Positions 1,937 to 23,248 of a stretch of 64,000 bases of DNA are shown here, in pieces (position 1 is the first letter of the stretch; each line of letters begins with the position of its first letter). This DNA comes from Candidatus Heimdallarchaeota archaeon. Lineage in GTDB: Archaea; Asgardarchaeota; Heimdallarchaeia; Heimdallarchaeales; Kariarchaeaceae. Location: positions 18,383-82,382 of the forward strand of contig WAKA01000095.1 in NCBI GenBank assembly GCA_015523565.1. Reading direction: 5' to 3'. A program made the translations under genes and the position numbers. The notes below the pieces were generated by a model that saw nothing but the letters and a program-made list of their open reading frames with translations, was not told where the DNA came from and did no database searches.

Positions 1937-2021
1937 ACACTCATCAATTTAAAGTGAAATAGTATCAAAAAGTTATCTTAAACAAAAAAAATCTAAAAAA
2001 AGTTTATTTGGAAATAGTTAC

Positions 2022-4443: not shown

Positions 4444-5898
4444 TTGGAAATGGTTGAGCTAAAAAGAATAAACAATAATGTTTGGGAAATTCCTGTTACT
4501 GCCAGGTCAGACATGAATGTTCCAGTGCACATTTATTCCTCAGAAATATTATTGAAAGACTTGGATCAGGGAGTTATAAATCAAGGGATGAATGTTGCAT
4601 CATTGCCTGGCTTGGTGAAAAAAGTCTCCGTTATGCCTGATGGGCATTGGGGATATGGATTCCCAATTGGTGGCGTTGCCGCAATGGATGTTGAAGAAGG
4701 TGTCATTTCTCCAGGCGGTATTGGTTTTGACATCAATTGTGGAATGCGGTTAATTAGAACTAACCTTACTATTGAAGATGTCAAACCTAAACTAAAGGAA
4801 TTAGTGGATGAACTATTCAAGGCAGTTCCAACAGGTGTCGGTACAAAAGGCTTGATTTCGTTGAAAGACCGCCAATTTGACGAAGTTATGCAGAGTGGAA
4901 TTGATTGGGTGATTGAAAATGATCTTGGATGGAAAGAGGATAAGCAATTCATGGAAGAGCAAGGGGTGATCAAGGGTGCAAGGCCTGAATTGATTTCACA
5001 AAAGGCACGTTCAAGGGGTCGTAATCAGTTGGGAACACTTGGCAGTGGCAATCACTTTCTTGAAATTCAAGTGGCACATCCCCAAAACATCCATGACAAG
5101 GAAACAGCAGAAGCTTTTGGTGTAGATATTGACAATCAAATCGTCATCATGATACATTGTGGTTCTCGCGGTTTTGGGCATCAAATAGCTTCTGAACATT
5201 TACGTGTCTTTTTGGAGGCAATGCCGAGATATGGCATAAAAATATTGGATAAGGAACTGGCCGCAGCCCCAATAAAATCGAGAGAAGGTGAAGAATATTT
5301 TGCATCCATGGCGGCCGCTGCAAACATGGCATTCGCAAATCGTGCAATTATTATGCATCAAACAAGGAAAGTTTTCTCAAAAGTGTTCGGTCAGGATCCT
5401 GAAGACTTGGGTATGAGACTCACTTATGATGTTTGTCACAATATTGCAAAATTTGAGGAACACACTGTTGATGGTGAAAAACGGGAGGTCTTGGTTCATA
5501 GAAAAGGTGCGACTCGTGCTTTCGGTCCCAATCATCCAGATTTGGCAGAAAAATACAAACCTTATGGACAACCAGTCATTATAGGTGGAAGCATGGAAAC
5601 TGGTTCCTATATCTTGGCAGGCACAGATGAATCCATGCATGAGGCATTTGGAAGCTCAGCACATGGATCTGGAAGGACAATGAGCCGAAGCAAAGCCAAA
5701 AAGCAAATTACAGGACAGGAACTCTATGAACAAATGTTAACTAAAGGCATATATGTACGGGGCGCTTCTTGGAAAGGTCTTGCCGAAGAAGCAGGATTTG
5801 CCTATAAGGATCTTTCAGAAGTAGTCAAAGCCTGTGAAGGTGGTCATTTGGCCAAACCCATTGTTCAATTAAGACCAATCGGAAATATTAAGGGTTAA
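4444..5898 (+). CDS. rtcB: RNA-splicing ligase RtcB (3'-phosphate/5'-hydroxyl RNA ligase)
   Basis: RtcB signatures are present: MPDGHWGYGFPIGG, GFDINCGMR, GSGNHFLEIQ, HCGSRGFGHQ and the C-terminal HGSGR. The true start may be the ATG at 4450, where a T/A-rich TATA-like run sits about 25 nt upstream. No intein is present. Confidence 0.95.
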   Translation: MEMVELKRINNNVWEIPVTARSDMNVPVHIYSSEILLKDLDQGVINQGMNVASLPGLVKKVSVMPDGHWGYGFPIGGVAAMDVEEGVISPGGIGFDINCGMRLIRTNLTIEDVKPKLKELVDELFKAVPTGVGTKGLISLKDRQFDEVMQSGIDWVIENDLGWKEDKQFMEEQGVIKGARPELISQKARSRGRNQLGTLGSGNHFLEIQVAHPQNIHDKETAEAFGVDIDNQIVIMIHCGSRGFGHQIASEHLRVFLEAMPRYGIKILDKELAAAPIKSREGEEYFASMAAAANMAFANRAIIMHQTRKVFSKVFGQDPEDLGMRLTYDVCHNIAKFEEHTVDGEKREVLVHRKGATRAFGPNHPDLAEKYKPYGQPVIIGGSMETGSYILAGTDESMHEAFGSSAHGSGRTMSRSKAKKQITGQELYEQMLTKGIYVRGASWKGLAEEAGFAYKDLSEVVKACEGGHLAKPIVQLRPIGNIKG

Positions 5899-6839
5899 AC
5901 ATCCCATTCTATAGCCATTGTTCCCATTGAAAATCCAAGGCTTGTGCCTGACACCAAGATTTTCGACCCCTTTTTGATCAATCCATGTTCAATCCCATAA
6001 TTCAATTGAAACAGCAAATCATTGGTTCCCATGTGTGGCACTTCTTGAAGGCATTTCAATCCTGTTTTTTCCAATGGGAATTTCATTTGTTCCAACACCA
6101 TCTTGGTCGCTGCATATGTTGAACAACTTAAAGCAATAAAATCAATGTCTTTTGGATATGTTTTCATGGCAAGACATGCCTTTCGCATATGAGTTCCGAA
6201 TGTTTTCACCATGTAAGCTGAAAGCTCCTTTCCTTTCTGTAAATTTGCCAACTGATATTTTGCATCACTGTTCAGAACAAACATGTCTCTAAAATAAGGG
6301 TTTGTGCTTATTTCCACATATCTTATCATGTTTCCGTGATCTGCCTTGGAAAACGCAAATGCCCCAATAGAATCAGCAAAGATACAATTCCCGTCTGAAC
6401 AATTGTTTGTATATTGTGTTGTCATTTGAACTGATCCAACTATGATGTTTTCAATTTCTGGGTGTATGAAATGGGTTCCCGCGATCTGTGCGGCAACTGT
6501 AACCGAAGCACATCCAAGGGAAAAATCAAATCCAAATCCTTCAGCTCCTGGAAAGGCTTCCATTGTGACTGGGCTTGCTCCTTCTGGATGCCTGTCTATG
6601 CCATTATGAATCCCCAAAAACCCTTGAATGTCTTCTCCTGTCAATCCTGCCATTTCTGCTGTTTTCCTGACTTCACTTATGAGTACCTTGTCCCAATCAC
6701 TTTCATTTGAATAGACATAGGTTGCAGGAACAGGATTTCTACCAAGGACTGTTTTTGGAAGATTAAGCTCTTCAACTGCTATGCGCTTATCGCCCTTGTT
6801 GTAACTCCATCCAGAAAGAGAAAGGTTATCGAACTTCAT
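5895..6839 (-). CDS. FabH-like beta-ketoacyl synthase III / thiolase-fold condensing enzyme
   Basis: It has a thiolase-fold layout with an active-site Cys context (FSLGCASVTVAAQIAG). A His/Asn region (VPHMGTNDL) resembles the FabH HQAN motif, and the C-terminus (GTSLGFSMGTMAIEW) resembles the FabH GFGGGLTWG...W motif. It is divergently transcribed from accC. Confidence 0.65.
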   Translation of the reverse strand: MKFDNLSLSGWSYNKGDKRIAVEELNLPKTVLGRNPVPATYVYSNESDWDKVLISEVRKTAEMAGLTGEDIQGFLGIHNGIDRHPEGASPVTMEAFPGAEGFGFDFSLGCASVTVAAQIAGTHFIHPEIENIIVGSVQMTTQYTNNCSDGNCIFADSIGAFAFSKADHGNMIRYVEISTNPYFRDMFVLNSDAKYQLANLQKGKELSAYMVKTFGTHMRKACLAMKTYPKDIDFIALSCSTYAATKMVLEQMKFPLEKTGLKCLQEVPHMGTNDLLFQLNYGIEHGLIKKGSKILVSGTSLGFSMGTMAIEWDV

Positions 6840-6973
6840 AGAACTAATTCATAAGCCAAAAAGCCTATTCAATAAAGTTTCTTTGTTTACAATATCTATT
6901 TTACAGATAAAAAACAAGAAGAGCCCAACATCCCGAAAAGATTTTCTACACTTGATCGCCAATCATGCAACCA

Positions 6974-6983
6974 TTTTTTTATT
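6974..6983 (+). promoter_or_regulatory. TATA-like box upstream of accC (leaderless-type spacing)
   Basis: The run TTTTTTTATT is centred about 24 nt upstream of the ATG at 7003, and no SD sequence lies between them. This fits archaeal TATA-to-TSS spacing for a leaderless mRNA. Confidence 0.3.
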
Positions 6984-7002
6984 CATGAAAAAAACTTGAA
7001 AC

Positions 7003-8481
7003 ATGATCCAAAAATTACTGATTGCCAACCGAGGTGAAATTGCACTCCGCATCATTCGAGCTGCAAAAACCTTGGGGGTTGAAACAATTGCCGTCTATTC
7101 AGAACAAGACAGGCATTCATCACATGTGAAAATGGCTGATCTGGCAATCAATATTGGCGGAGGTCCTGCAAGCAACAATTACCTGAGCATTGAAAAATTG
7201 ATTGATGTCGCTGAAAAACATGAGGCTGACTCTGTACATCCAGGTTATGGTTTCCTTGCCGAATCCCCTGAATTTGCAGAAGCTGTTGTTAAAGCAGGAT
7301 TTAAATGGGTTGGGCCAAGTGCCGAAGTAATCCAAAAACTTGGTGATAAGCTTACTTCTAGATCCATTGCCGAAAAGGTTGGTGTACCCACTACTTCTGG
7401 AAGTCCAGATCCAGTACTTCCAAACGAAGATGCAAAAAAGATTGCAAAAGAAATAGGCTATCCTGTCATGATCAAGGCATCATATGGAGGAGGCGGTATG
7501 GGCATTCAGGTTGTAAGATCTGAGGATGAATTGCTCCCAACCATTGAAAAAACCTCCAAACAAGCTCAAGCGGCATTTGGGAACCCTGAAGTTTTTATTG
7601 AGAAATTCATAGAAAAACCACGACATATTGAATTCCAATTCATGGCCGATAAAAGAGGGAATGTTGTCCATTTAGGGGAAAGAGAATGCTCAATTCAAAG
7701 AAGACATCAAAAGTTAATTGAAGAAGCCCCATCAATGGCTATCAATGAAGAAGAAAGGGAAAAAATGGGCAAACTGGTTAAAAAGCTTGCAAAATATGTG
7801 GGATATGAAAATGCAGGGACGGCTGAGTTTCTCTATAAGGATGGTCAGTTCTATTTCAATGAAGTAAACACACGAATTCAAGTGGAGCATCCAGTCACAG
7901 AAATGATAACGGGCAAGGATCTTGTCCTTGAACAACTTCTGGTTGCATCTGGAAAAAGACTTTCATGGAAACAAAAGGATATTGCTTTCAATGGCCATGC
8001 AATTGAATTGCGAATCAATGCAGAAGACCCTCTCCAAAATTTTGCTCCTACTGCTGGAAAAATAGAACAATTGTCAATCCCTGGTGGTCCTGGCGTCAGA
8101 TTTGACTCACATATTTATTCAGGATATACTATTCCTCGTGAATATGATTCCCTGCTTGGAAAATTGATCATTTGGGGAGAAAACCGCAACCAATCAACTG
8201 CTCGTGCTTTTATTGCAATGACCGAACTGGCAATAACAGGTGTGCCAACCAATCTCCCATTTCATCGGGTTGCAATTGCCAACAAGAATTTCCAAAAAGG
8301 CAATTTGAATACCCATTTCATCGAAGATAATCTGATACTTCCATATATCCGTGCTGCATACAATAGGAGGGTTGCTGCATTGTTTGCCACACAAATGAAA
8401 ACGCGAAAGGTCTTTCTTCCAATCAGGGAGCAATCCAATTGGCGAAGGGTTGCCTTAAAGGAAATGACAAGGAGGTACTGA
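7003..8481 (+). CDS. accC: Biotin carboxylase subunit of acyl-CoA (acetyl/propionyl-CoA) carboxylase
   Basis: The ATP-grasp biotin carboxylase is conserved along its full length: KLLIANRGEIALRIIRA, HPGYGFLAE, GYPVMIKASYGGGGMGI, ERECSIQRRHQKLIEEAP, NTRIQVEHPVTE. Confidence 0.95.
   Translation: MIQKLLIANRGEIALRIIRAAKTLGVETIAVYSEQDRHSSHVKMADLAINIGGGPASNNYLSIEKLIDVAEKHEADSVHPGYGFLAESPEFAEAVVKAGFKWVGPSAEVIQKLGDKLTSRSIAEKVGVPTTSGSPDPVLPNEDAKKIAKEIGYPVMIKASYGGGGMGIQVVRSEDELLPTIEKTSKQAQAAFGNPEVFIEKFIEKPRHIEFQFMADKRGNVVHLGERECSIQRRHQKLIEEAPSMAINEEEREKMGKLVKKLAKYVGYENAGTAEFLYKDGQFYFNEVNTRIQVEHPVTEMITGKDLVLEQLLVASGKRLSWKQKDIAFNGHAIELRINAEDPLQNFAPTAGKIEQLSIPGGPGVRFDSHIYSGYTIPREYDSLLGKLIIWGENRNQSTARAFIAMTELAITGVPTNLPFHRVAIANKNFQKGNLNTHFIEDNLILPYIRAAYNRRVAALFATQMKTRKVFLPIREQSNWRRVALKEMTRRY
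8471..8476 (+). promoter_or_regulatory. Shine-Dalgarno-like site (GGAGGT) for accB, inside the 3' end of accC
   Basis: GGAGGT lies 6 nt upstream of the ATG at 8483. The accC stop (8479-8481) is 1 nt before the accB start, which suggests translational coupling. Confidence 0.45.
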
Positions 8482-8482
8482 A

Positions 8483-9076
8483 ATGACTCATCCTGCAATC
8501 AAAAAATCAATGGAAGCACAGGAGAAGCTCAAAAAACAATCCCATGAAAAAGTGGAATTGCCTAAAGATTACCTAAAAGAATTCAAATCGTACGATATTG
8601 TATTTACAGGTCGAAAGTCCACACTTCTTTATAATGAAAAAACTGGTGAAATTATCATAGATGGCCAAATATATAAGCCACAAGTGATTGATTGTGGATC
8701 CCATTATGAAATTAAGGTTCTCGGAAAACATTCTTACAATGTATCTTATAGTGAAGGTCACATTTTCCTTGATGGACGGATGGTTGATTTCTCATTTACC
8801 CCTTCAGTCCCCAAACTCAAAAGAAAAGGAAAACACGGTGCCAATAAAATTGAAATCCGTTCTCCTCTACCTGGTGTGATTGTTGGTCTTCATGTCAAAG
8901 AAGGGGACATTGTCAAGCAGGGGGATAAAATTGCCACATTAGAGGCAATGAAAATGCAAAATGAGCTGGTCACCGACCAAGATGGAATTGTTGAAAAAAT
9001 ACATATCAAAATCAATGACCAAACAGAAACCAACCAAATTATTGCCCTGATCAACACCAAAATTGAAAGCAATTGA
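8483..9076 (+). CDS. accB: Biotin carboxyl carrier protein (biotinyl/lipoyl domain) with an N-terminal extension
   Basis: The C-terminal biotinyl domain has the EAMKMQNE biotinylation motif (Lys within AMKM). A PLPGVIV...VKEGDIVKQGD context precedes it. Confidence 0.85.
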   Translation: MTHPAIKKSMEAQEKLKKQSHEKVELPKDYLKEFKSYDIVFTGRKSTLLYNEKTGEIIIDGQIYKPQVIDCGSHYEIKVLGKHSYNVSYSEGHIFLDGRMVDFSFTPSVPKLKRKGKHGANKIEIRSPLPGVIVGLHVKEGDIVKQGDKIATLEAMKMQNELVTDQDGIVEKIHIKINDQTETNQIIALINTKIESN

Positions 9077-9152
9077 TATTCTATAGCTATAGTATAAAAG
9101 AAAACTCGACCTGCTCAGTTGATTTTAAAAACCAATCCGTTTATCCTGATAC

Positions 9153-10724
9153 ATGGGTAACCCCGGGAATGAGGAAACAACAGAAAAAAAAATCCAAAAA
9201 TTTCTTGAACTCAAAAAACAAGCCATGTTAGGCGGGGGGGAAAAACGAATCCATGCACAACATGAAAAAGGCAAGTATACTGCCCGTGAAAGAATTCAGT
9301 TGCTTATGGATCCAGGCTCTTTTGTAGAACTCGGGGGATTTGTAACGCATCACAAAACCGAATTTGGTCTTGACAAAAAAAAATATCTGGGTGACGGTGT
9401 TGTCACTGGCTACGGTCGTGTCAATGGCAGGCTGGTTTATGTCTATGCACAAGATTTTACGGTATTGGGCGGTTCTCTTGGAAATTCACACGCCAAAAAA
9501 ATTGTAAACATAATGAATCTTGCATTGAAAACTGGTGCTCCACTTGTCGGTTTCAATGATTCTGGTGGTGCCCGTATCCAAGAAGGTGTTGATGCCTTGG
9601 CAGGTTATGGTGAAATTTTCTTTCACAACGTTCTTGCTTCTGGTGTGATTCCCCAAATCTCTGTCATTGTTGGCCCTTCAGCAGGTGGCGCAGTTTATTC
9701 TCCTGCCCTAACTGACTTTATCATCATGACAAAAGAAACATCACATATGTTTGTCACTGGTCCATCTGTCGTAAAAACGGTCACTGGTGAGGACATTTCC
9801 TTTGAAGAACTTGGCGGGTCTACAACCCATACCCTGAAATCAGGAGTCGCACACTTTGACGGAGCAGACGAAAAGGAAAGTATCGAATTGATCAAGAAAA
9901 TTCTAAGCTACCTGCCATCAAACAACTTAGAGGATCCTCCCGTTATCACTCCAACTGATGATAAATCCCGAACCAGTGAAAAACTCAATCGCATCATTCC
10001 AGATGATTCCAAATTGCCATACGATATGAAAGAGGTAATAAAAGAAGTCGTGGATCATGGTGAATTCTTGGAAATCCAAGAAAAATGGGCTAAAAACATC
10101 ATTATAGGTTTTGCACGTTTGAATGGCTATCCTGTTGGAATTGTTGCAAACCAACCTCCTGTGCTTGCAGGCGCTCTTGATAGTGAGGCAAGTATAAAGG
10201 GTGCAAAGTTTGTCAGGTTATGTGATGCATTCAATATTCCCATTATTACCTTTGTTGATGTCCCTGGCTTTCTTCCAGGAGTGGATCAGGAATGGAAGGG
10301 AATTATCAGAAATGGCGCAAAGCTTCTTTATGCATATTGTGAAGCTACAGTTCCAAAAATTGCAGTAGTTACGAGAAAAGCATTTGGTGGCGCATATATT
10401 GTCATGTCTTCAAAACATTTGCGGACTGACGTCAATTTCGCATGGCCAATGGCGGAAATTGCAGTCATGGGATCGGAAGCGGCAGTCAACGTGATTTTCA
10501 GAAGGGATTTGGAAAAAGCTGAAGATCCAATTGCCAAACAAAAGGAAATAGAGGCAGAATACCGAGAAAAGTTCTATAACCCATATTCTGCGGCATCATT
10601 TGGATACATCGACGAGGTAATCCTCCCTTCAGAAACCAGACCAAAACTCATTGAAGCACTCTGGCCCCTACTGACAAAACGTGAAAATCGATTTCCCAAA
10701 AAACATGGTAATATCCCATTATAG
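9153..10724 (+). CDS. Acyl-CoA carboxylase carboxyltransferase subunit (PccB / methylmalonyl-CoA carboxyltransferase 12S family)
   Basis: It shows the fused N- and C-terminal carboxyltransferase architecture at 523 aa. Conserved stretches include DFTVLGGSLG, GARIQEG, GPSAGGAVYSPALTDF, PGFLPG..QEW.GIIRNGAKLLYA and RKAFGGAY. Confidence 0.9.
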   Translation: MGNPGNEETTEKKIQKFLELKKQAMLGGGEKRIHAQHEKGKYTARERIQLLMDPGSFVELGGFVTHHKTEFGLDKKKYLGDGVVTGYGRVNGRLVYVYAQDFTVLGGSLGNSHAKKIVNIMNLALKTGAPLVGFNDSGGARIQEGVDALAGYGEIFFHNVLASGVIPQISVIVGPSAGGAVYSPALTDFIIMTKETSHMFVTGPSVVKTVTGEDISFEELGGSTTHTLKSGVAHFDGADEKESIELIKKILSYLPSNNLEDPPVITPTDDKSRTSEKLNRIIPDDSKLPYDMKEVIKEVVDHGEFLEIQEKWAKNIIIGFARLNGYPVGIVANQPPVLAGALDSEASIKGAKFVRLCDAFNIPIITFVDVPGFLPGVDQEWKGIIRNGAKLLYAYCEATVPKIAVVTRKAFGGAYIVMSSKHLRTDVNFAWPMAEIAVMGSEAAVNVIFRRDLEKAEDPIAKQKEIEAEYREKFYNPYSAASFGYIDEVILPSETRPKLIEALWPLLTKRENRFPKKHGNIPL

Positions 10725-10835
10725 ATTATGCAGTGAAAACAGAACCTTAATCCCTTGACTATTTTATGACTAAATAATCAATCTAACACATATTTTAAGA
10801 ATTGTCAGTCAATCAGTCACATAGAAATTACTATA

Positions 10836-13800: not shown

Positions 13801-16800
13801 TTGTTAAAACACAACCTTCTCTTCAAAAAATCATTAATGATGAGCTGTTTGAACAGTTTCTTAAACATCAAGGTCAAGCCTTCAATAATTTTCTTTTGGA
13901 GGCATTTGAGGGATTCAAGAAAACAATCAAGGAATCAAATGCCATTGCAGAAAAAGTACAGAGGCTTGGATTAAATCTTGATGACATTGTCATTACAGGA
14001 ACAGGTGTCGGACTTCCTGGAAAATTCAAGGAAATATTTGACGAACGTAATATTGAGCTGATATTGGATGGTTATAATTTCATTGACCCTGTAGGCGACC
14101 GAAAACTCAAACAACAAACCGACAAGAATATCGTAAAACTTGTCAAAAGGGATAGGGGTCAACCTACACTTGAGAAAATCAATAATATTAGGGATGTCAT
14201 AAAGCTTGCCGCCCAAGGAGGAAAATTTGACTTTGTCGAAGAATTCCAACTTGGTGAGAAAATTGTTGAAGCTTACGATAGAACCACAAAACTTGCCATC
14301 GCCGCTGGATTGGAGGCATTAAAGGATGCAGGCATCCCATTGGTCAGAAGCTATACAAAAACAAGCACTGGAAGTTATCTCCCTAGCGATTGGGTATTGC
14401 CAGAAGATCTACGCGAAGATACCGGTGTCATCTTTGCTTCCGCATTTCCAGGATATGACAGCTTAGTTCAGGAAATGACCAAGTTCTATGAAAGCAAATA
14501 TGCAGGAGAGGCATTGGATGTTCTAAGAAAAGTTTATGGCGAAATTGTCAGGAAATTGGGAAACAAGGATGAGTATAGGGAATTTGTCGAATTTCTGGAA
14601 CAGAATCTCAACGAACTTGAAGAACATAAGTCGGTCTACCAGTTCAACAGAAAATTCCTTTTCAAGATCCTCTCGATGGGTCATTCTCAATTTGCACAAC
14701 TTATCAAGGCGTATGGTCCCAACACACAGGTCAATGCCGCATGTGCATCCACAACACAAGCAGTTGGAATTGCCAATGATTGGATAAGATCTGGTAGATG
14801 CAAAAGAGTCATCCTCATTGGTGCAGATGATGCTTCAGGTGAAAACCTATTTGAATGGATAGGTTCTGGATTCTTGGCTTCAGGTGCAGCAACAACAAAA
14901 GAAAAGGTATCTGAAGCAGCCTTGCCATTTGACCGAAGAAGACATGGAATGATCATTGGAATGGGGGCAGTTGGAATTGTAATTGAAACAGCAGAAGAAG
15001 CAAAACGACGAGGCATTAAACCCATCGTCAAAATACTTGGGACATATTATTCCAATTCTGCATACCATGGAACAAGACTCGATGTCAATCATATTTCATA
15101 TGAATTGGAAAAATTCTTCAAAAAAATAAACGCGACCACTGGTCTGACTCCTGAACAGATTGCAAACTCTGCAATGTTCATGAGTCACGAGACATATACT
15201 CCTGCTAGAGGTGGGAGTGCCGCCGCTGAAATACAATCGCTCCGTCATGTCTTTGGTGAAAATGCTTCAAAGATCATCATTGCAAATACAAAAGGATTTA
15301 CTGGTCATCCAATGGGCGCAGGTATTGAAGACGCAATAGCAATCAAGGCACTGCAATACGGGAAAATTCCTCCAATTGCCAATTTCAAAGAACCTGATGA
15401 GACATTGGGAAACCTTTCCCTTTCCAAAGGTGGAAAATACAATGTCAAATATGCAATCCGTTTGGCCGCAGGCTTTGGATCACAGCTTGCATTCGCCCTT
15501 TATGAAAAGGCTGCGGGAATGGATAGGGAAACTCCTCAATATGAGCAATGGCTTAAATCAATTGGTGGCTCAAAGGCAGACCTAATTAAAGTTGGAAAGA
15601 CATTAAGATTAAAAGACAACGGACCACCAAAGAAATCAATCCAAAAGACCAAAATTGTCAAAAAAGTCAAATCCCCTACTCGACCCATTCCCGCAACAGT
15701 TGCAAAACAAAAATCAACACACGCAAATGACATCTTGGAATGGATCGCAAATGAAACTGGCTATCCAAAAGACCTTCTTGATGATTTTGTAAATCCTGTA
15801 AAGGATCTAGGAATAAATGCTCAGAAGCTCGCTTCTGTTGTAGGACAAACAAATGTTGATAATCTGACAATTGCAGATCTCAAAAAACTTTCTTTCAAAG
15901 ACACTTCACCCCAAAAATCCACCCCTATATCCACGAAACCTGACTCTCCAAAAGATGTGAAAGTTCAAAAACGAACAATGACATCTCAAGATGGTGTTAT
16001 CAAAGAAATTGTGAAAATTGTCGCTGAAAAGACGGGCTATCCTGAAGAAATGCTTGATCCCAATCTTGATATGGAGGCGGATTTGGGTATAGATACCGTT
16101 AAACAGGCTGAACTCTTCGGTTTGATACGGGAACATTACAATATTCCTTTGATTGAAGACCTTGATCTTTCTGAATATAACACCCTTGCAAAAATTGCGG
16201 ATTTTGTCAATGAGCATTCGTCATTTGAATCTAAAGCTACTGTTTCATCATCTTCCTCTTCCGCAAACATTGGCATTTCACAAGATCAAGATGAAATCAT
16301 TAAGACAATTACGTCTTTGATTGCCGAACAAACTGGTTATCCCAACGAAATGCTTGAACCCGACTTGGACATGGAAGCAGATCTGGGAATTGATACTGTC
16401 AAACAAGCAGAGTTGATTGGGATGATCCGAGATTATTACAACATCCCATTGATTGAAGACCTCGACATATCTGAATACAATACAATCCGTAGGATTGCTA
16501 ACTTTGTCATGGAATATGCACCCGCCTCCGACAAAAAACAGGTGGTAGTACATAAAGAGGCAAGAGATCAAGATAGGATTCTGAAAACTATCACATCAAT
16601 TATTGCAGAAAAAACTGGTTATCCTGAAGAGATGCTTGAACCTGACTTGGATATGGAGGCAGACTTGGGAATTGACACCGTGAAACAGGCAGAACTAATC
16701 GGTGTCATCAGGGAACACTACAATATCCCATTGATTGAAGACCTTGATATATCTGAATACAATACGATCCGAAAAATTAGTAAATTTGTCATTGAAAACA

Positions 16801-19800
16801 CAAAACCTACAACAGAAATAGAAAGAAAAGAAATTGAAGATGATAAAACTCCAATACTGCAAACGATTACAAAAATAATTGCAGAAAAAACTGGTTATCC
16901 TGAAGAGATGCTTGAACCTGACTTGGACATGGAAGCAGACTTGGGAATTGACACGGTGAAACAGGCAGAACTGATCGGTGTCATTAGAGAGCATTACAAC
17001 ATCCCATTGATTGAAGACCTTGACATATCTGAATACAATACCATTTCCAGAGTGGCGGATTTCGTCATGCAATATAAGCCACAAGAATCTAAGCCGCAAG
17101 AATCATCTCAAAAAGAAAAATCCAAGGAAAGGCAACAAGAAACCCAAAAGGAAAACGAAAAATCCAATGGTGAAATGCTGATCATCCAAAAACTGAAAGA
17201 AAAAGTTTCTGAACTGACTGGTTTCCCTGCAGAATTGGTTGAGGAAAATATCGACTTGGAAAAAGAAATGGGTATTGACAATGCACAAATATTACAGTTG
17301 ACAAAATCCCTCCTCGATGATTTAAATCTACCAGACATGAAAGTCACTGCAACAAGCATCAAGGAAATAGCACAAGAAATTTCAAAACTTTCGCCCTCTT
17401 CCCAAAAAACTTATCGGTACGTAATTGAGATGCAGGAATCACCTAGAACCCTTGATCCAAAGAACATTGATTTCATTGTCCTTACTGAAGAGAAATTGGA
17501 AAATGTCAAAACAGTGGATCTCGATGGTCTAGAACAAACTGAATGCAATCACCTATTGATATTGAATCCCAAACCTGATTTCAATATCTCCAAACTTTTT
17601 GAAATTCTGAAAGGGAAAATTGATGCACTAAAATCATTTGGCGTTGCAGAAACAATTTCAAGACCAAAATCCATAAACGATATCTCTCCAATTACAGGGG
17701 CAATTGGTGGCATGGCAAAAACCCTGATGCATGAGTTCAATATCAATGCAAAAATAATTGCCGCAAATGATCTCCGTGTCATATTGAATGAATTTACTGA
17801 TCAAAATCCCGATATTGAAGTCGTTTTTGATGGATCAAAACGCCTAGTGCCTGCATTGAAAGAAATGGATCTCCCTGTTCCCACTGACATCTCCCTTCCT
17901 AAAGGAAGCAATTTTATAGTCTCTGGAGGCGCTCAAGGAATTACCTTTGAATGTATCATGCCAATTGTAAAATCATCAGAAAACGTTCGGGTGATCCTTA
18001 TTGGTCGAACTGAAATTAAGGAAAATGCATCGGAAATTGCACAAATGTCTGATGAACAACTCAAAGAAAAGAAAAATGAACTTCTTGCACAATTAAAGGA
18101 AAAACATGAAAAAGTGACTCCAGTAATGCTGAACAAAGAATGGTCAAAAATCATAAAATCTGCCATTGTCTACCAGAATATTGAGAAATTGAAATCAATG
18201 GGTGCAGAAGTTGTATATATTCAATCAGACATTACTGCTCCCTCTCTCCCCGATAAAATTAAATCCAACATTATTCCTGACAAACCTGTTTTCATTGTCC
18301 ATGGTGCTGGTGTAGAAATATCAAAAGCAACAAAATCCAAACTCACCTCTGAATTTGAATTGGTTTACAACATAAAGGTTGTAGGCATTGAAAACCTCTT
18401 GAAATCAGTTAAACAAGAGAATGTCAAAAGAATCATTTCATTCACTTCTGTTGCTGGTCGTTTTGGAAATGCGACACAAATTGACTATTCTGCCGCAAAT
18501 GAATATCTTGCAAAACGAATGGCAATGCTAAAACGCCAAGGGGTCTCTGCAACCTCTATTGATTGGTCTGCATGGGCAGAGATTGGAATGGCAACAAAAG
18601 ACACGACAATGAAGGTATTACAGGCTGCGGGTGTAACCCCGATTCCTCTGAAAGACGGTGTTGCCCGTTTCCTTTCTGAATTCTTCAATTCCACCGAAGA
18701 CGAAGTCGTAATAAGCGGCAAACTGGGAATGTTGGCAAAAGGCACTAAATTCGTAAAAAATGACAAAATACCTCTTCCAGCAACAGAAAACAAGAAAAAA
18801 CTATCGTCCCAGAAGCAAAGAAAAGAAGAAGGTGCAAGGAAACAGGAAGCACAAGCTAAATCTGAATCAACCCAAAAGATGGTGACGATAAAAGAACCTC
18901 AAACTGAAAAAACAAAAGAAATAGCGAAAACAAGAGCACCTAACCAAATCAAATCACAATTACATAAGGAACAACCTGTCACAAAAAAAGAACAGAAGAC
19001 ATTCCCCATTCTTAATCCTGAATTTCCTATGATGCATGGAACAATAACAATCAACAAAATTATTGCGGGTAAAAAAGTGTTGAACTTAGAACAGGATTTG
19101 TATCTTGATGACCATCGTATTGACGGAAAAGCTGTTCTCCCCGGTGTTATGGGTCTTGAGTTTTTCACTGAGTTTGTAAACTATCATGGTGGCAAGGTAA
19201 CAGGGATGAGATCTGTTGTTTTTTCATCCCCTGTCAAACTTCCAAAAGACAAGCCCCTTGAAATTTTTGTCATTCCAGAAAAAGTTACTGGTTTGAATTC
19301 AATCAAACTTACTCTCAAATCTAAATTCATTGGTCCAGATGGCAAACAACTAGGGGATCTCCGACCCCATTTTGTTGCAGAAATTATTGAAGGAGAATTA
19401 GCTCCTGGTTATCCCTTCCTTCCCGCAACACAATCAAAATGGTTCATTAAGGAGAACTTGGTGATTCCTAAGGAAAAGATCTATGAAGTCTTTTTCCATG
19501 GACCTTCATTCCAAGTCCTTGACGGAATCATAAATTTGGGTGCCAACAGTATTTCTGCCGTATACAATGAACCTAATGAACCCCTGTTCCCTGACAAGAA
19601 TGCATCTGTGCACCTTGCACCTAGACTTATTGAGGCATGTTTCCAAACAGCAGGCATGTATGATTTACTCATCAATAAAACCATGTCCCTTCCAAATGGC
19701 ATTACAAAAATTCAACTCTACCAAGGATTTGAGAATGCAAAATATATCCATGCCACCCAAACAAGATCAAAGAACAATATTTCCCATTATAACGTCTTTG

Positions 19801-20567
19801 CATTGGACAAAGACCTAAACGTTGTTCTTGAACTGATTAACTATGAAATGATCCACACTGGCACAACAGAAATACCTTTCAATACACCTGAAACCGTTGA
19901 TGAACCTGTTGTTGCAGAATTGATGCATCACGTGGGTCAAATCACTCCGTTGGCAGTTTCAATCTCAACAGAAGCAATGGAACACATCAATGAAGAATTC
20001 CTCGACGCATATTTACTACCCTCTGAAAAAGTAATCTATGCTCGATTCAAAGTGCCAAAAAGGAAAATGGAGTGGCTCGCTGGAACTATCGCCGCAAAAA
20101 AGGCAATTTCTCTAACATTCAATGTCCCTGAAACTGAAGTGGAAATAATTAAAAACAAAAACGGGAAACCTGGTGGAATCTTTGAAGGAATTGAATATCC
20201 TGTCACCAAAACCCATTCAAATGGTGTTGCCATTGCATTGTCACACCCTGATGGTGGTGTAGGCATTGATATTGAAAAAATAGAGCCAAGAGATCCTTCA
20301 TTAATTAAAACCGCCTTCACCAATGACGAAATCAAGCGGTTCCAGATTAAGCCTGATAAACATAAGCTCATCACCCAACTCTGGTCTATAAAAGAAGCAA
20401 GCCTAAAGGCAATAGGAACTGGTTTGAAAACATCACTGAAAGACACAATCATCAAAAAATCGAGCAAAAGCAAAAGATATACCGTCCAAATCAAAAAGAA
20501 ATTGTTGTCAATAACATCTGTCACAACTGATGATTGGGTTGTCACTTTGGCTATACTGAATCAATGA
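10836..20567 (+). CDS. Type I PfaA/PKS-like iterative megasynthase: KS-AT-KS-(carrier-like x6)-KR-DH-PPTase, 3243 aa
   Basis: It is a single uninterrupted ORF. Catalytic motifs for each domain are listed in the sub-features below. The tandem carrier domains and overall layout resemble PUFA / secondary-lipid synthases (PfaA-like). Confidence 0.9.
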   Translation: MINMSGNDSQKIKIETPEIYDYEPVAIVGIGAIMPDALNAKEFWENIKSGKNSITEVPKERWDPELFYDPDPSVPDKTYTKIGGFIKNFEFNGIQFRIPPKIASKLDPIQQMALTAAKEALEDANYESDSFNKERTAVILGNSMGGEIVRQYTRRVYFPEIVRTLKQTKAFNTLDQDAQQQLLIEVEKEYKSHLEEITEDSMPGELANVIAGRIANVFNLRGKNMTTDAACASSMAAIDEAFKSLVAHEVDAVVCGGADRSMDVSTYVKFCKIGALSPDGSFPFDARANGFVMGEGVGFFVLKRLSDAIRDGNKIYALIRGVGSSSDGKGKGITAPNPIGQQLAIERAYKLAGISPAEVTLIEAHGTSTKVGDVVEVETLHKVFNKYNLPKQSIALGSIKSQIGHLKSAAGAAAIIKTALALYHKILPPSINFETPNPKIDWSNSPFYVNTQAKEWIHPSTKPRKAGVSSFGFGGTNFHVVMEEYDPNFDYFAPLKEKERHKETEPFAFQEFIAKNKHLQGEAFAISGKDESELKENIEFFFNSLPENTFLEDPEMPSLTEIRDQVKFKPNDGYRVAFAANSLEQIHDKKEIINKAILTPSFRKAAQKRGIYFSQDLPTGKIAFVFPGQGSQYVNMLKDLRDRYEIVQKTFEEADTVLEEFLGRKLSEIIFASNHQIKDNEELLKQTQFTQPAMLTADIAIFRLLKMHGIVPEMVAGHSLGEYAALVAAGVLSFPDALKAVAIRGRAMANVDSEDKGTMASVSAPFEKVQEVLKTVDDYVIAANLNSVKRIVISGSTQGVKKAMEKFKELGIQTVPLSVSAAFHTDIVAPAAKELAEFLKTIEFKSPRIKVSSNVLGDFYPDDPDEIRALLEKQVESPVHWIQQCETMYQAGARIFFEVGPKRALATFVQENLEGKDIVSQITNHPKTGDIYQFNDAIALARALGIQVSFIDFEYPKPKVKPKKADPLPKIKQQITAKTEYNPNELANFVKTQPSLQKIINDELFEQFLKHQGQAFNNFLLEAFEGFKKTIKESNAIAEKVQRLGLNLDDIVITGTGVGLPGKFKEIFDERNIELILDGYNFIDPVGDRKLKQQTDKNIVKLVKRDRGQPTLEKINNIRDVIKLAAQGGKFDFVEEFQLGEKIVEAYDRTTKLAIAAGLEALKDAGIPLVRSYTKTSTGSYLPSDWVLPEDLREDTGVIFASAFPGYDSLVQEMTKFYESKYAGEALDVLRKVYGEIVRKLGNKDEYREFVEFLEQNLNELEEHKSVYQFNRKFLFKILSMGHSQFAQLIKAYGPNTQVNAACASTTQAVGIANDWIRSGRCKRVILIGADDASGENLFEWIGSGFLASGAATTKEKVSEAALPFDRRRHGMIIGMGAVGIVIETAEEAKRRGIKPIVKILGTYYSNSAYHGTRLDVNHISYELEKFFKKINATTGLTPEQIANSAMFMSHETYTPARGGSAAAEIQSLRHVFGENASKIIIANTKGFTGHPMGAGIEDAIAIKALQYGKIPPIANFKEPDETLGNLSLSKGGKYNVKYAIRLAAGFGSQLAFALYEKAAGMDRETPQYEQWLKSIGGSKADLIKVGKTLRLKDNGPPKKSIQKTKIVKKVKSPTRPIPATVAKQKSTHANDILEWIANETGYPKDLLDDFVNPVKDLGINAQKLASVVGQTNVDNLTIADLKKLSFKDTSPQKSTPISTKPDSPKDVKVQKRTMTSQDGVIKEIVKIVAEKTGYPEEMLDPNLDMEADLGIDTVKQAELFGLIREHYNIPLIEDLDLSEYNTLAKIADFVNEHSSFESKATVSSSSSSANIGISQDQDEIIKTITSLIAEQTGYPNEMLEPDLDMEADLGIDTVKQAELIGMIRDYYNIPLIEDLDISEYNTIRRIANFVMEYAPASDKKQVVVHKEARDQDRILKTITSIIAEKTGYPEEMLEPDLDMEADLGIDTVKQAELIGVIREHYNIPLIEDLDISEYNTIRKISKFVIENTKPTTEIERKEIEDDKTPILQTITKIIAEKTGYPEEMLEPDLDMEADLGIDTVKQAELIGVIREHYNIPLIEDLDISEYNTISRVADFVMQYKPQESKPQESSQKEKSKERQQETQKENEKSNGEMLIIQKLKEKVSELTGFPAELVEENIDLEKEMGIDNAQILQLTKSLLDDLNLPDMKVTATSIKEIAQEISKLSPSSQKTYRYVIEMQESPRTLDPKNIDFIVLTEEKLENVKTVDLDGLEQTECNHLLILNPKPDFNISKLFEILKGKIDALKSFGVAETISRPKSINDISPITGAIGGMAKTLMHEFNINAKIIAANDLRVILNEFTDQNPDIEVVFDGSKRLVPALKEMDLPVPTDISLPKGSNFIVSGGAQGITFECIMPIVKSSENVRVILIGRTEIKENASEIAQMSDEQLKEKKNELLAQLKEKHEKVTPVMLNKEWSKIIKSAIVYQNIEKLKSMGAEVVYIQSDITAPSLPDKIKSNIIPDKPVFIVHGAGVEISKATKSKLTSEFELVYNIKVVGIENLLKSVKQENVKRIISFTSVAGRFGNATQIDYSAANEYLAKRMAMLKRQGVSATSIDWSAWAEIGMATKDTTMKVLQAAGVTPIPLKDGVARFLSEFFNSTEDEVVISGKLGMLAKGTKFVKNDKIPLPATENKKKLSSQKQRKEEGARKQEAQAKSESTQKMVTIKEPQTEKTKEIAKTRAPNQIKSQLHKEQPVTKKEQKTFPILNPEFPMMHGTITINKIIAGKKVLNLEQDLYLDDHRIDGKAVLPGVMGLEFFTEFVNYHGGKVTGMRSVVFSSPVKLPKDKPLEIFVIPEKVTGLNSIKLTLKSKFIGPDGKQLGDLRPHFVAEIIEGELAPGYPFLPATQSKWFIKENLVIPKEKIYEVFFHGPSFQVLDGIINLGANSISAVYNEPNEPLFPDKNASVHLAPRLIEACFQTAGMYDLLINKTMSLPNGITKIQLYQGFENAKYIHATQTRSKNNISHYNVFALDKDLNVVLELINYEMIHTGTTEIPFNTPETVDEPVVAELMHHVGQITPLAVSISTEAMEHINEEFLDAYLLPSEKVIYARFKVPKRKMEWLAGTIAAKKAISLTFNVPETEVEIIKNKNGKPGGIFEGIEYPVTKTHSNGVAIALSHPDGGVGIDIEKIEPRDPSLIKTAFTNDEIKRFQIKPDKHKLITQLWSIKEASLKAIGTGLKTSLKDTIIKKSSKSKRYTVQIKKKLLSITSVTTDDWVVTLAILNQ
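10900..12290 (+). other. Domain: ketosynthase 1 (KS, Cys-His-His type)
   Basis: Motifs are EPVAIVGIG, the active-site TDAACASS (Cys codon 11526-11528), EAHGTSTKVGD and GSIKSQIGHLKSAAG. Confidence 0.9.
12695..13560 (+). other. Domain: acyltransferase (malonyl-type AT)
   Basis: Motifs are FVFPGQGSQY and GHSLGEYAAL (Ser codon 12990-12992). The specificity region SVSAAFHTDIV (xAFH) resembles the malonyl-specific HAFH/GAFH motif rather than YASH. Confidence 0.9.
13975..15515 (+). other. Domain: second ketosynthase-like domain (retains Cys and both His, so not an obvious chain-length factor)
   Basis: Motifs are VITGTGVGLPG and VNAACASTTQA (Cys codon 14742-14744). The His regions are SHETYTPARGG and NTKGFTGHPMGAG. 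An insert of about 80 aa follows the N-terminal strand. Confidence 0.75.
15721..15897 (+). other. Domain: degenerate carrier-protein-like domain (Ala at the attachment position)
   Basis: The sequence ILEWIANETGYPKDLLDDFVNPVKDLGINAQKLASVV aligns with the repeats downstream. The motif reads GINAQ instead of GIDS/T. Confidence 0.4.
15990..17075 (+). repeat. Four tandem in-frame carrier-protein (PP-binding-like) domain repeats, period about 276-300 bp
   Basis: Four copies have the consensus ..I(A)E(K/Q)TGYP(E/N)EMLEPDLDMEADLGIDTVKQAELIG.IREHYNIPLIEDLDISEYNT... Copies 3 and 4 are near-identical at nucleotide level over more than 150 nt (compare 16602-16770 with 16878-17046). Confidence 0.85.
17175..17391 (+). 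other. Domain: degenerate carrier-protein-like domain (Asn at the attachment position)
   Basis: The sequence is LIIQKLKEKVSELTGFPAELVEENIDLEKEMGIDNAQILQLTKSLLDDLNL. It has the same helix pattern as the repeats, but the motif reads GIDNA. Confidence 0.4.
17400..18740 (+). other. Domain: ketoreductase (structural pseudo-KR subdomain plus catalytic SDR subdomain)
   Basis: The Rossmann motif is NFIVSGGAQGITFE (about 17905-17950). A catalytic Tyr context is IDYSAANEYLAK (about 18481-18515). About 160 aa of N-terminal structural half precede it, as in PKS/PfaA KRs. Confidence 0.8.
19000..19860 (+). other. Domain: PKS-type (double hot-dog) dehydratase
   Basis: The HxxxGxxxxP motif is LDDHRIDGKAVLPGV (His codon 19113-19115). 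The second-half motif is HLAPRLIEACFQ, which resembles HPxLLDxxxQ with Glu in place of Asp. Confidence 0.75.
20030..20564 (+). other. Domain: C-terminal Sfp-type 4'-phosphopantetheinyl transferase
   Basis: The ordered PPTase motifs are KRKMEWLAGTIAAKKAI, KNGKPGG, KTHSNGVAIALS, GVGIDIEKI, FTNDEIKRF and LWSIKEASLKAIGTGL. Confidence 0.7.
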
Positions 20568-20589
20568 CAAGTTAACGAAGAAAATATTA

Positions 20590-21402
20590 ATGGCATATGA
20601 AATTCAAATTATGATTGATTTAACAGGCAAACGAGCAATCGTTTTTGGTGTCGCCTCAGAAACAAGCATTGCTTGGGCAATTTCAAAATGGCTTGCCAAA
20701 GCCGGTGCAAAAATCACCCTTTCATATCAAAAACGCTTTAGATCCCGTATTTACTCATTGACCAAAGATGTTGACTTCATCGAGGGGATGCATGAGTGCG
20801 ATGTTGCTTATGACGATCAGGTAAGGGATTTCTTTGCAAACTTGGACGGGAAATTTGATATGGTCGTACATGCAATCGGCTATGCTCCTGCAACCGCATT
20901 GAGCAAACCTATTATCTACACTTCCGAAGAGGATTTCAACACTGCAATGGTGATCTCTGCATATTCTCTGCAAAGAATTGTCAGGCATGCCATGAGGGTG
21001 TTGAACCCAAACAGTGCCTTTCTTACGCTGACATATTTGGGTGCTGTCCGTGTGGTTCCTGGATACCGAATTATGGGCGTTGCCAAAGCCGCTTTAGAGG
21101 CATTTGTCAGGGAGCTTTCTGTCAACATAGGTCTTGCTGGTCATCGTATCAATGCAATTTCCTCAGGACCAATTAAAACTCTTGCAGCAAGTCATGTCCC
21201 TGGATTTGACAACATCCTTGAGTATATGCAACATGCATCCCCGCTAAGACGAAACGTCGTACAGGATGATGTTGCCAAAACGGCTCTGTTTTTACTGAGT
21301 GATTTGAGCTCAGGCATAACTGGCCAAACAATCTATGTTGATACAGGCTTTTCCAGCGTTGCTCTTCCTGCTGATATTGACAAGCTCAAATTTGAGGATT
21401 AA
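20590..21402 (+). CDS. fabI: Enoyl-[acyl-carrier-protein] reductase, FabI type (SDR)
   Basis: FabI signatures are GKRAIVFGVASETSIAWAISK, the Tyr/Lys region LTYLGAVRVVPGYRIMGVAKAALEA, INAISSGPIKTLAAS and ITGQTIYVDTG. It starts 22 nt after the megasynthase stop. Confidence 0.9.
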   Translation: MAYEIQIMIDLTGKRAIVFGVASETSIAWAISKWLAKAGAKITLSYQKRFRSRIYSLTKDVDFIEGMHECDVAYDDQVRDFFANLDGKFDMVVHAIGYAPATALSKPIIYTSEEDFNTAMVISAYSLQRIVRHAMRVLNPNSAFLTLTYLGAVRVVPGYRIMGVAKAALEAFVRELSVNIGLAGHRINAISSGPIKTLAASHVPGFDNILEYMQHASPLRRNVVQDDVAKTALFLLSDLSSGITGQTIYVDTGFSSVALPADIDKLKFED

Positions 21403-21836
21403 ATGTCAATTATGAAATGAGCCTCCCACCCATTGTCAACTTGCTTGACATAAAAATCATGCATTGTAATGGCTTTAATGTCATTTCCAATCTTATCATT
21501 CTCGGGATCAAATAAGTCACCAACAAATTTCCCCTTAACTGCATATCCCTCGTTTTCCTTATCAACGTGAAGTTCAACATTCTTGACAAAAAATAGCTCC
21601 GCATCTTTCAAATAAACCATCTCCTCAAGAAGCGTGTGCAACAGCAAATCCAATGATTTCTCCTCGAACTGAATGGCCTTCTGCATTAATTCATCCAGAT
21701 TACTTGGGTCTGTCATCAAATTTGCAATGGAAAGGCATGCATCCCTAAAAAGCTCATTAAGGTCTTTCCCCGTTACCTTAATGCCAATATCTGCAATTGC
21801 CTCTTCTTCTAGATATTCCCATGGCATAACCTGCAT
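21399..21836 (-). CDS. Archease (RtcB activator / tRNA-modification chaperone)
   Basis: The N-terminus (EEEAIADIGIKVTGKDLNELFRDA) and C-terminus (IKAITMHDFYVKQVDNGWEAHFIIDI) match the archease pattern (..ADI....G..leelf and vKavTyh.l.v....w.a.vvlDi). It is about 140 aa. Confidence 0.8.
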   Translation of the reverse strand: MQVMPWEYLEEEAIADIGIKVTGKDLNELFRDACLSIANLMTDPSNLDELMQKAIQFEEKSLDLLLHTLLEEMVYLKDAELFFVKNVELHVDKENEGYAVKGKFVGDLFDPENDKIGNDIKAITMHDFYVKQVDNGWEAHFIIDI

Positions 21837-21881
21837 TTATTGTGACCCTTTATGAATTTGTTAACAGGTGGTTAAATAATT

Positions 21882-23127: not shown

Positions 23128-23248
23128 CCGCGTTCCTCCTTGTTTCTTGTTAAATGATAATAAGTTGATTGCATATTTTAAACTTAAGGGATTTTGAAAA
23201 AGAAAATGCCAATTGGTAGGTAAATCTATTTTCAGGACGTTCTTTTTT

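Follow-up and report, generated by a model that had tools for sequence, protein, structure and literature searches.

We analyzed a 64,000-nt stretch of DNA from Candidatus Heimdallarchaeota archaeon (assembly GCA_015523565.1, contig WAKA01000095.1, positions 18,383 to 82,382 of the forward strand; hereafter the window) and found in it a 15.5-kb cluster of six genes. The genes encode the parts of an acetyl-CoA carboxylase (ACC), a 3243-aa megasynthase resembling PfaA of polyunsaturated fatty acid (PUFA) synthases, an enoyl reductase (ER) of the FabI type and a protein with the fold of 3-ketoacyl-acyl carrier protein synthase III (KAS III). It is probable that this is a functional, vertically maintained Heimdallarchaeial cluster, which most likely makes reduced fatty-acid-type acyl chains on a phosphopantetheine arm. 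An initial annotation, made from the sequence alone, had claimed a self-contained cluster for malonyl-CoA formation and PfaA-like acyl-chain synthesis, and this claim is supported by the domain content and the intact catalytic residues described below.

The initial annotation had further proposed that six adjacent genes are involved. All six open reading frames (ORFs) were reproduced at exactly the same coordinates in a program-made ORF list, and their families were confirmed by searches of the window proteins against Pfam and NCBIfam profiles. The gene of the KAS III-fold protein (314 aa; 5895-6839, minus strand; PF08541, 36 bits) is followed on the plus strand by the genes of the AccC biotin carboxylase (7003-8481; PF02786, 248 bits; PF00289, 151 bits; PF02785, 123 bits), the biotin carboxyl carrier protein (BCCP; 8483-9076; PF00364, Biotin_lipoyl, 60 bits; EAMKM motif with the biotinyl-lysine K157), an acyl-CoA carboxyltransferase (CT) of the single-chain 12S (PccB/MmdA) type (9153-10724; PF01039, Carboxyl_trans, 657 bits), the megasynthase (10836-20567) and the FabI-type ER (20590-21402; PF13561, adh_short_C2, 234 bits). 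The 163-bp intergenic region between the divergent KAS III-like and accC genes (6840-7002) is presumably the promoter region; a scan for bacterial-type promoters and terminators gave matches at the chance level only and is uninformative for an archaeon. The cluster is flanked on the left by the gene of the RtcB tRNA ligase (4444-5898, plus strand; PF01139, 564 bits) and on the right by that of archease, the RtcB activator (21399-21836, minus strand; PF01951, 114 bits). At both borders, RtcB/KAS III-like and FabI/archease, the 3' ends of the genes are convergent and overlap by 4 nt.

The megasynthase is encoded by an uninterrupted 9.7-kb ORF and has the domain order KS1-AT-KS2-(pseudo-carrier)-four carriers-(pseudo-carrier)-KR-DH-PPTase (KS, ketosynthase; AT, acyltransferase; KR, ketoreductase; DH, dehydratase; PPTase, phosphopantetheinyl transferase). 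It scores 1131 bits with the PfaA model TIGR02813, the curated cutoff of which is 1010.1, and searches with hidden Markov models (HMMs) matched all of the KS, AT, KR and DH families that had been assigned to it. All domains are on the plus strand. KS1 (aa 23-496; 10902-12323; PF00109, PF02801, PF16197) has the triad C231/H365/H405; the AT (aa 621-920; 12696-13595; PF00698, 147 bits; FabD model TIGR00128, 244 bits) has GHS719 and R744; KS2 (about aa 1050-1560; 13983-15515), the second ketoacyl-synt stretch, has the triad C1303/H1451/H1491; the KR (aa 2360-2582; 17913-18581; PF08659, 84 bits) has S2538 and Y2551; and the DH (aa 2747-3006; 19074-19853), which is of the polyketide synthase (PKS) type (PF21089, PKS_DH_N, 33 bits; PF14765, PS-DH, 30 bits), has H2760 within HxxxGxxxxP as well as E2933 and Q2937. 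All catalytic residues checked in these five domains are unchanged in an alignment of 27 diverse archaeal and bacterial homologues that are 38-70% identical. KS2 is FabF-like (98 bits in a PDB search), and because its Cys-His-His triad is intact, it is predicted to be a second active ketosynthase and not a chain-length factor (CLF) devoid of the cysteine. The AT carries an AAFH motif, and its likeness to the xAFH motif of malonyl-specific ATs suggests malonyl specificity.

Six carriers had been counted in the megasynthase by the initial annotation. A search by hmmsearch with an HMM built from the megasynthase repeats did find six carrier-like units, but only four of them are usable, the outer two being degenerate. 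The four tandem carriers (aa 1715-1795, 1816-1895, 1910-1989 and 2002-2082; 15978-17081) score 158-164 bits each, are matched by PP-binding (PF00550) in four stretches (133 bits) and form at the DNA level the repeat family D1 (4 x 243 nt). The degenerate units have Ala (aa 1630-1671; 15723-15848; DLGINA; 15.7 bits, i-E 6e-7) and Asn (aa 2115-2167; 17178-17336; MGIDNA; 20.5 bits, i-E 2e-8) at the attachment position. All four canonical carriers read DLGIDTVKQAE, which is among the best-conserved stretches of the family, and have a threonine (Thr1754, Thr1854, Thr1948 and Thr2040) at the phosphopantetheine position. This threonine aligns exactly onto the phosphopantetheinyl-serine of solved acyl carrier proteins (ACPs), the fold and the motif being otherwise kept; the canonical serine occurs in none of the six units of the window protein.

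Threonine was found in 456 of the 470 carrier motifs of the best 120 homologues (serine in 13) and in 223 of the 225 motifs from 80 independent species-representative loci (serine in two), and judging from these counts it is a hallmark of the whole family. Serine occupies the site in all or some units of a few archaeal members: the proteins P0009, P0013 and P0117 and the megasynthase of Candidatus Heimdallarchaeum aukensis (locus L042; two units). As the aligned motifs of these members show serine and threonine to be interchangeable at this position, the threonine is most simply read as the residue to which phosphopantetheine would be attached. The natural S/T polymorphism among a few archaeal members is also useful for the analysis of PPTase specificity.

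The C-terminal PPTase domain (about aa 3050-3243; 19983-20567; PF01648, ACPS, 55 bits) has both signatures of Sfp-type (group II) enzymes, GIDIE (consensus GxD(I/V)E) and WSIKEASLKA (consensus WxxKEAxxK), and can be aligned over both of its halves with Sfp (residues 15-167) and with human AASDHPPT; enzymes of this class are normally two-lobed and have about 230 aa. Of the 80 genome loci, at least 36 have a PPTase that is fused to the megasynthase or adjoins it; Poseidonia and many bacterial loci encode it separately, in a gene downstream.

All parts of an ACC are present in the cluster, namely the biotin carboxylase, the BCCP with its biotinyl-lysine motif and the CT. AccC scores 639 bits with NF006367 (cutoff 597); the top-scoring model for the CT is TIGR01117, with 808 bits and thus below the cutoff of 999. 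CT and/or AccC genes adjoin the megasynthase in loci of Elusimicrobiota, Chloroflexota, Acidobacteriota, Thermoplasmata and Heimdallarchaeia, and CT homologues specifically do so in Elusimicrobiota, Chloroflexota, Thermoplasmata and Heimdallarchaeia. The identity to the window CT is 71% in a Dive100 archaeon (locus L052, where the cluster has a TPR protein and an ORF without a Pfam match as neighbours), 67% in Thermoplasmata, 60% in H. aukensis and 49-56% in bacteria; this order parallels the relatedness of the megasynthases.

The FabI-type protein contains the motif Y..Y-x6-K, scores up to 244 bits with the FabI models of NCBIfam, below their equivalog cutoffs, and is presumably the trans-acting ER of the cluster. 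A FabI gene also adjoins the megasynthase in Poseidoniales. The archaeal members have an ER at hand, either as an adjacent FabI (this lineage and Poseidoniales) or as a fused FabK-like domain (Asgard variants of ~3580 aa), and together with the dedicated ACC this fits the needs of an organism without a fatty acid synthase of type II (FAS II) for a fully reducing cycle. A group of such fused proteins (P0021-P0063; about 3560-3615 aa; labelled Asgard, Heimdallarchaeota, Bathyarchaeia or Zixibacteria) contains an NMO/FabK-like ER (PF03060) and only two Thr carriers. Relative to the window protein, the start of their KS2 is shifted by ~730 residues towards the C-terminus, an indication that the ER lies upstream of KS2; with the fused PPTase they are, by their domain content, complete reducing synthases in a single polypeptide.

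The first gene of the cluster had been described as a FabH-like KS III. The fold was upheld: the AlphaFold2 model of the protein is confident (pLDDT 94.4), and Foldseek superposes it on Staphylococcus aureus FabH with a TM score of 0.85, for which reason we accept the KAS III fold of the modelled protein as real. The canonical active site was not found, which leaves a role in priming unproven. The NCBIfam FabH models give at most 41 bits against cutoffs of 249-315. Among 28 homologues C110 is invariant, and alignment to Bacillus subtilis FabHA places an invariant S238 at the catalytic His of FabH and an invariant loop H269-M-G-T-N273-D at the position of the Asn (the canonical triad being C112/H244/N274 in Escherichia coli). 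The family is tiny, with about 30 clusters at 90% identity, and isolated: a search of 1.84 billion representatives of 50%-identity clusters gave one full-length match with 553 bits, the next full-length match having 74 bits. All its named members come from metagenome-assembled genomes (MAGs) of Heimdallarchaeota, except for one from a MAG labelled "Methanobacteriota archaeon". This protein may be involved in priming, and a role in acyl transfer or off-loading is equally possible.

A search of 5.8 billion proteins identified thousands of relatives of the megasynthase, and almost all of the best 120 have about 3000 aa and the same architecture. The archaeal names among the relatives include Heimdallarchaeota, Kariarchaeaceae, "Asgard group", Thermoplasmatota and Bathyarchaeia; the bacterial ones include Chloroflexota, Elusimicrobiota, Acidobacteriota, Actinomycetota and Leptospiraceae. 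The family is widespread in public archaeal MAGs, where its copies bear generic names, for example "SDR family NAD(P)-dependent oxidoreductase" or "acyltransferase domain-containing protein". With 38-48% identity, the bacterial relatives retrieved from Acidobacteriota, Elusimicrobiota and Chloroflexota have this architecture, too. The species representatives of GTDB, when scanned, added the complete genome of H. aukensis (CP084166.1) and several Poseidoniales (Marine Group II). In a KS2 tree, the window protein falls within a clade of Heimdallarchaeota and Kariarchaeaceae, and other archaeal clades are formed by Thermoplasmatota, by the ~3580-aa Asgard proteins with a fused FabK/NMO-type ER, and by Poseidoniales; the tree (neighbour-joining, no bootstraps, rooted with a distant paralogue) informs on clade membership only and not on the direction of transfer. 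As the archaeal clades are taxonomically coherent, a long residence of the family in archaea may be assumed.

In the H. aukensis genome (CP084166.1) the cluster (4636-24378 of locus L042) contains, in this order, genes for the glycerol-3-phosphate (G3P) acyltransferase PlsY (upstream; PF02660, 118 bits), a biotin ligase, a CT, the megasynthase, an alpha/beta-hydrolase and a BCCP, and is followed by a duplicate of the hydrolase gene and by type III CRISPR genes. The megasynthase is split here into two ORFs, with the KS/AT portion repeated, and a segmental duplication with 100% identity, comprising the PPTase end, the hydrolase and the BCCP, brackets a Csm6 HEPN gene beside the type III CRISPR-Cas locus. 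In a search for release enzymes, tblastn with PlsY, the hydrolase and BirA of H. aukensis gave matches neither in the window nor in the other loci. One high-GC Thermoplasmata locus (L038) was left out of the neighbourhood reading, being too noisy at the ORF level.

The initial annotation had also held that the cluster is integrated into an archaeal chromosome, and five lines of evidence (borders, synteny, composition, host identity and an empty site) bear this out. The borders are found in independent assemblies: the right one (FabI/archease) in at least five (from ENA, from two NCBI MAGs and from Logan assemblies of SRA runs) and the left one (RtcB/KAS III-like) in three. The order RtcB, KAS III-like, AccC, BCCP, CT, megasynthase, FabI, archease is also kept in related species, on contigs of 631 kb and 473 kb that encode megasynthases 65% and 52% identical to that of the window, respectively. 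The tetranucleotide profiles of the cluster and of the rest of the window correlate with r = 0.971 (0.964-0.976 for control blocks of the same size), and GC3 (GC content at third codon positions) of the cluster genes is like that of the flanking genes; the overall GC content is 0.398, slightly above the 0.362 of the remaining window. Of the flanking genes, those of RtcB, archease, RadA/Rad51 and a Ras-family GTPase were confirmed, the latter two also being encoded in the window. The nearest named homologues of the window RtcB are from Kariarchaeaceae and Heimdallarchaeota LC_2 (75-77% identity), which makes Heimdallarchaeia most likely the host. In the Heimdallarchaeal MAG GCA_026702845.1, five genes, among them one for a Ras/Arf GTPase, lie between the ACC/KAS III part of the cluster and the megasynthase.

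In LC_2, the rtcB and archease genes are separated by a single 82-aa ORF. Relative to this empty site the cluster may be called an island, as had been done initially, but it is an old and ameliorated one without a mobility signature. The possibility of a recent mobile island was rejected: there is no tRNA gene in the window, no direct repeats flank the cluster, no integrase is present among the annotated window ORFs, and the borders are the 4-nt overlaps of convergent genes. Since RtcB and archease are functional partners and near-adjacent in LC_2, the cluster has the appearance of an ancient insertion that parted the two, which most likely occurred in an ancestor of the sub-lineage and has since been fully ameliorated.

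The closest described systems are the Type R secondary lipid synthases, defined as KS-MAT-CLF-ACP(3-6)-KR (MAT, malonyl-CoA acyltransferase) with a downstream PPTase and listed for Koribacter versatilis, Solibacter usitatus, Elusimicrobium minutum and Roseiflexus spp.; an ACC gene is present in some of the clusters, including that of Koribacter, and in that paper archaea are not mentioned and the word "threonine" does not occur (Shulse & Allen 2011, PLoS One 6:e20146). By architecture, partners and phyla the megasynthase matches the Type R family, the named Type R proteins being compared by their description only. Shared features are the single PfaA homologue, the order KS-AT-KS2-carriers-KR, the dedicated PPTase, the ACC in some clusters and the bacterial phyla, which are also those of the closest non-archaeal relatives of the window protein. 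In contrast to the bacterial systems, the host is an archaeon, the PPTase is fused C-terminally, a DH follows the KR, the domain called CLF in Type R has an intact Cys-His-His triad, and the cluster adds a full three-gene ACC, FabI and the gene of the KAS III-fold protein.

With PfaA of the pfaABCDE systems, the window protein shares the core of KS, MAT, tandem carriers, KR and DH, the iterative type I logic and the ER as a separate protein; it differs in having an additional KS after the AT and before the carriers, in the fused PPTase and in the Thr carriers. Unlike in PUFA synthase systems, neither PfaB nor PfaC (KS-CLF) nor PfaD was found in the cluster or the annotated window; the only DH is of the PKS type and the ER is FabI instead of PfaD (FabK/NMO). 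FabA-like DH/isomerase domains are absent, and hence there would be no route to methylene-interrupted cis double bonds. As compared with bacterial FAS II, the functions of ACP, FabD, FabF/B, FabG and FabZ/A are domains of one protein, and only FabI and the KAS III-fold protein are discrete. Enediyne PKSs (PKSE; SgcE/CalE8) are iterative type I enzymes related to PUFA synthases; like the window protein, they have KS, AT, ACP, KR and DH and an integrated C-terminal PPTase, but they have one Ser carrier, no second KS and no ER partner. Their product is a conjugated polyene released by the dedicated thioesterase of the enediyne cassette, no part of which was found in the window. The alpha subunit of the fungal type I FAS also has its own C-terminal PPTase, to which a weak match was obtained (yeast FAS PPT, 2uv8, E 0.03); however, the fungal domain is AcpS-type and part of a barrel-shaped heterododecamer, and there is no overall architectural homology. 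De novo fatty acid synthesis in Archaea is also the subject of the ACP-independent thiolase/DUF35 route (bioRxiv 10.1101/2024.07.05.601840), which uses CoA thioesters and neither ACP nor malonyl-CoA, whereas the window cluster would depend on both.

From these data we infer the following scheme. AccC, BCCP and the single-chain CT would, by their families, convert acetyl-CoA to malonyl-CoA, and the C-terminal PPTase would turn the four tandem carriers into the holo form, with the arm presumably on threonine, as this is the residue at the attachment position. The AT would load malonyl units onto the carriers, and KS1 and KS2 would extend the chain iteratively, possibly with different chain-length preferences, in analogy to the KS pair of PUFA synthases. 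Each beta-keto group would be processed by the KR and the DH, and the enoyl intermediate would be reduced in trans by FabI, yielding a saturated or largely saturated chain. The KAS III-fold protein with its invariant cysteine may be an accessory acyl-transferring or priming enzyme. Release would require a trans-acting enzyme that is not encoded in the cluster. Ester glycerolipids are one plausible destination of the chains, because an alpha/beta-hydrolase and PlsY adjoin the H. aukensis cluster, a single case that ties the pathway to the acylation of G3P.

Several observations weigh against the cluster being a working source of such chains in a Heimdallarchaeial host. The lipids of cultured Asgard archaea (Lokiarchaeia) are of the ordinary isoprenoid ether kind. 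We know of no established precedent for the phosphopantetheinylation of threonine, and E. coli ACP with the S36T substitution is reportedly not modified by AcpS. The protein with the KAS III fold is without the canonical His/Asn pair for decarboxylative condensation; the substrate of the CT is not established by its PccB/MmdA type; neither a thioesterase, as the initial annotation had noted, nor a release acyltransferase is present in the window; and the nearest NCBI-labelled MAG carries only the coarse label "Methanobacteriota/Euryarchaeota archaeon". No product is known for any Type R family member, bacterial or archaeal, and the bacterial hosts also have FAS II, hence the term "secondary" lipid there (Shulse & Allen 2011). 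In the most serious alternative, to which we give somewhat less than an even chance, identical chemistry would lead to a specialised secondary lipid or polyketide (such as a long-chain lipid of unusual type, a precursor of hydrocarbons, a signalling or a protective molecule) instead of bulk membrane glycerolipid, and the cluster would have little bearing on the lipid divide. This agrees with the bacterial relatives being secondary lipid synthases in FAS II-containing hosts, with the combination of tandem carriers and a PfaA-like core, which is typical of PUFA and heterocyst-glycolipid systems, with the lack of a glycerolipid acyltransferase in the window and with the OleABCD hydrocarbon genes reported in Hodarchaeales. 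It is opposed by the presence of an ER (adjacent FabI or fused FabK-like) and a dedicated ACC in the archaeal versions, and by PlsY directly upstream in the complete H. aukensis genome.

The remaining alternatives are less probable. The carboxylase genes could encode a housekeeping acyl-CoA carboxylase, for instance for propionyl-CoA, and not supply malonyl-CoA to the synthase; the CT being of the 12S PccB/MmdA type with its best score on TIGR01117 and the frequent promiscuity of archaeal acyl-CoA carboxylases speak for this, but we regard it as improbable, given the CT and AccC genes beside the megasynthase in unrelated phyla and in the Koribacter Type R cluster, the CT identities that rank as the megasynthase relatedness, and the biotin ligase inside the H. 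aukensis cluster. Much less probable still is an inactive relic in which carriers with threonine instead of serine cannot be pantetheinylated and the synthase is dead. No carrier of the window protein has the canonical serine and two units are clearly degenerate; however, the 9.7-kb ORF is unbroken, the catalytic residues are invariant across members only 38-70% identical, DLGIDTVKQAE is strongly conserved, and at least 36 of 80 loci have a fused or adjoining PPTase. The least credible explanation is an assembly or binning artefact joining bacterial DNA to an archaeal contig, with the typically bacterial domain families and the slightly elevated GC content as the only points in its favour; against it stand the left and right borders in three and at least five independent assemblies, the identical gene order from RtcB to archease on the 473-kb and 631-kb contigs of other species, a tetranucleotide signature and GC3 indistinguishable from the flanks, and homologues in a closed Heimdallarchaeal genome. 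As far as these data go, the relic and the artefact are in effect excluded. We retain the reading of a functional cluster for reduced acyl chains.

Archaea are described as being without FAS I and FAS II and nearly all without ACP and ACP synthase (bioRxiv 10.1101/2024.07.05.601840, 2024), and the change from isoprenoid ether to fatty-acyl ester lipids, central to models of how eukaryotes arose, is still unsolved. In the literature searched, whose coverage excluded subscription papers and supplements, we found no publication on an archaeal PfaA-like or ACP-dependent synthase cluster, no description of identical clusters in this lineage and no precedent for threonine-linked phosphopantetheine; PfaA-like genes for fatty acid synthesis go unmentioned in the major Asgard papers. 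The bacterial enzyme family and the generically named archaeal MAG sequences are already known. The window cluster is set apart by its fused PPTase, its complete ACC, FabI, a KAS III-like partner that is largely confined to Heimdallarchaeota MAGs, and the Thr carriers, which appear to be unreported. The cluster is a concrete, clonable candidate that makes the lipid-divide question experimentally approachable, and its relatives stretch from a closed Heimdallarchaeal genome, where the cluster lies beside PlsY, to the abundant marine Poseidoniales. A broader proposition, that Heimdallarchaeia, other Asgard archaea, Thermoplasmatota and Poseidoniales make fatty acyls de novo by an ACP-dependent, self-activating type I synthase with carriers that a co-evolved PPTase modifies on threonine, and that in at least some of them, such as H. 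aukensis with its neighbouring PlsY, the chains enter G3P ester lipids, is made only tentatively and appears doubtful to us at present. If it were true, the archaeal relatives of eukaryotes would already have had a route to lipids of the bacterial and eukaryotic type, based on a carrier chemistry of which we found no description. The near-universal threonine predicts a PPTase-carrier pair of unusual specificity in the whole Type R family, including cultured bacteria (the strains of Roseiflexus, Koribacter and Elusimicrobium listed by Shulse & Allen, whose own sequences are not part of the threonine counts). Such a Thr-specific pair would be a potential orthogonal labelling system.

Several other features of the window touch the cluster or its flanks. 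A perfect 25-nt inverted repeat connects 10951-10975 (plus strand), corresponding to megasynthase codons ~39-47 (NAKEFWENI), with 22569-22593 (minus strand), which lies downstream of the archease gene in AT-rich intergenic DNA that separates minus-strand ORFs of 148 aa and 177 aa. Chance matches in 200 shuffles reached at most 17 nt, and none is expected in 100 shuffles of the whole window; the repeat is absent from the two syntenic relatives (L090 and L091) and may represent a relic or the seed of an antisense RNA. At 21882-23620 (minus strand) there are three ORFs of 177, 148 and 123 aa without significant Pfam matches, the 177-aa one having a faint ribbon-helix-helix N-terminus. The 177-aa ORF (203 aa in L091) follows archease in all cluster-bearing relatives, and ORFs of the sizes of the other two were seen in L091 and not in L090. 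No such small ORFs follow archease at the empty site of LC_2, and it is possible that they are linked to the cluster, for example as a regulator. Upstream of RtcB (80-3815), a signalling protein of the methyl-accepting chemotaxis protein (MCP) type (MCPsignal, 96 bits) and a family-5 solute-binding protein are encoded; an MCP gene is found beside archease in two other Heimdallarchaeal MAGs (L088 and L089).

Three further regions lie farther from the cluster. At 36084-41270, the gene of the Ras-family small GTPase (PF00071, 192 bits) precedes three large ORFs (430, 462 and 637 aa) without Pfam matches, and a similar block of a GTPase and unknowns is present inside the cluster of GCA_026702845.1. 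A ThiF/E1-like protein (PF00899, 197 bits) is encoded at 48645-49697, the adjoining ORFs being unannotated. At 54541-57221, the ORFs of a DEAD-box helicase (555 aa) and a DUF5814 protein (343 aa) are in different frames and share 19 nt; a second assembly of this population has one 893-aa protein in their place, and the split is likely a frameshift or a sequencing error in the source contig.

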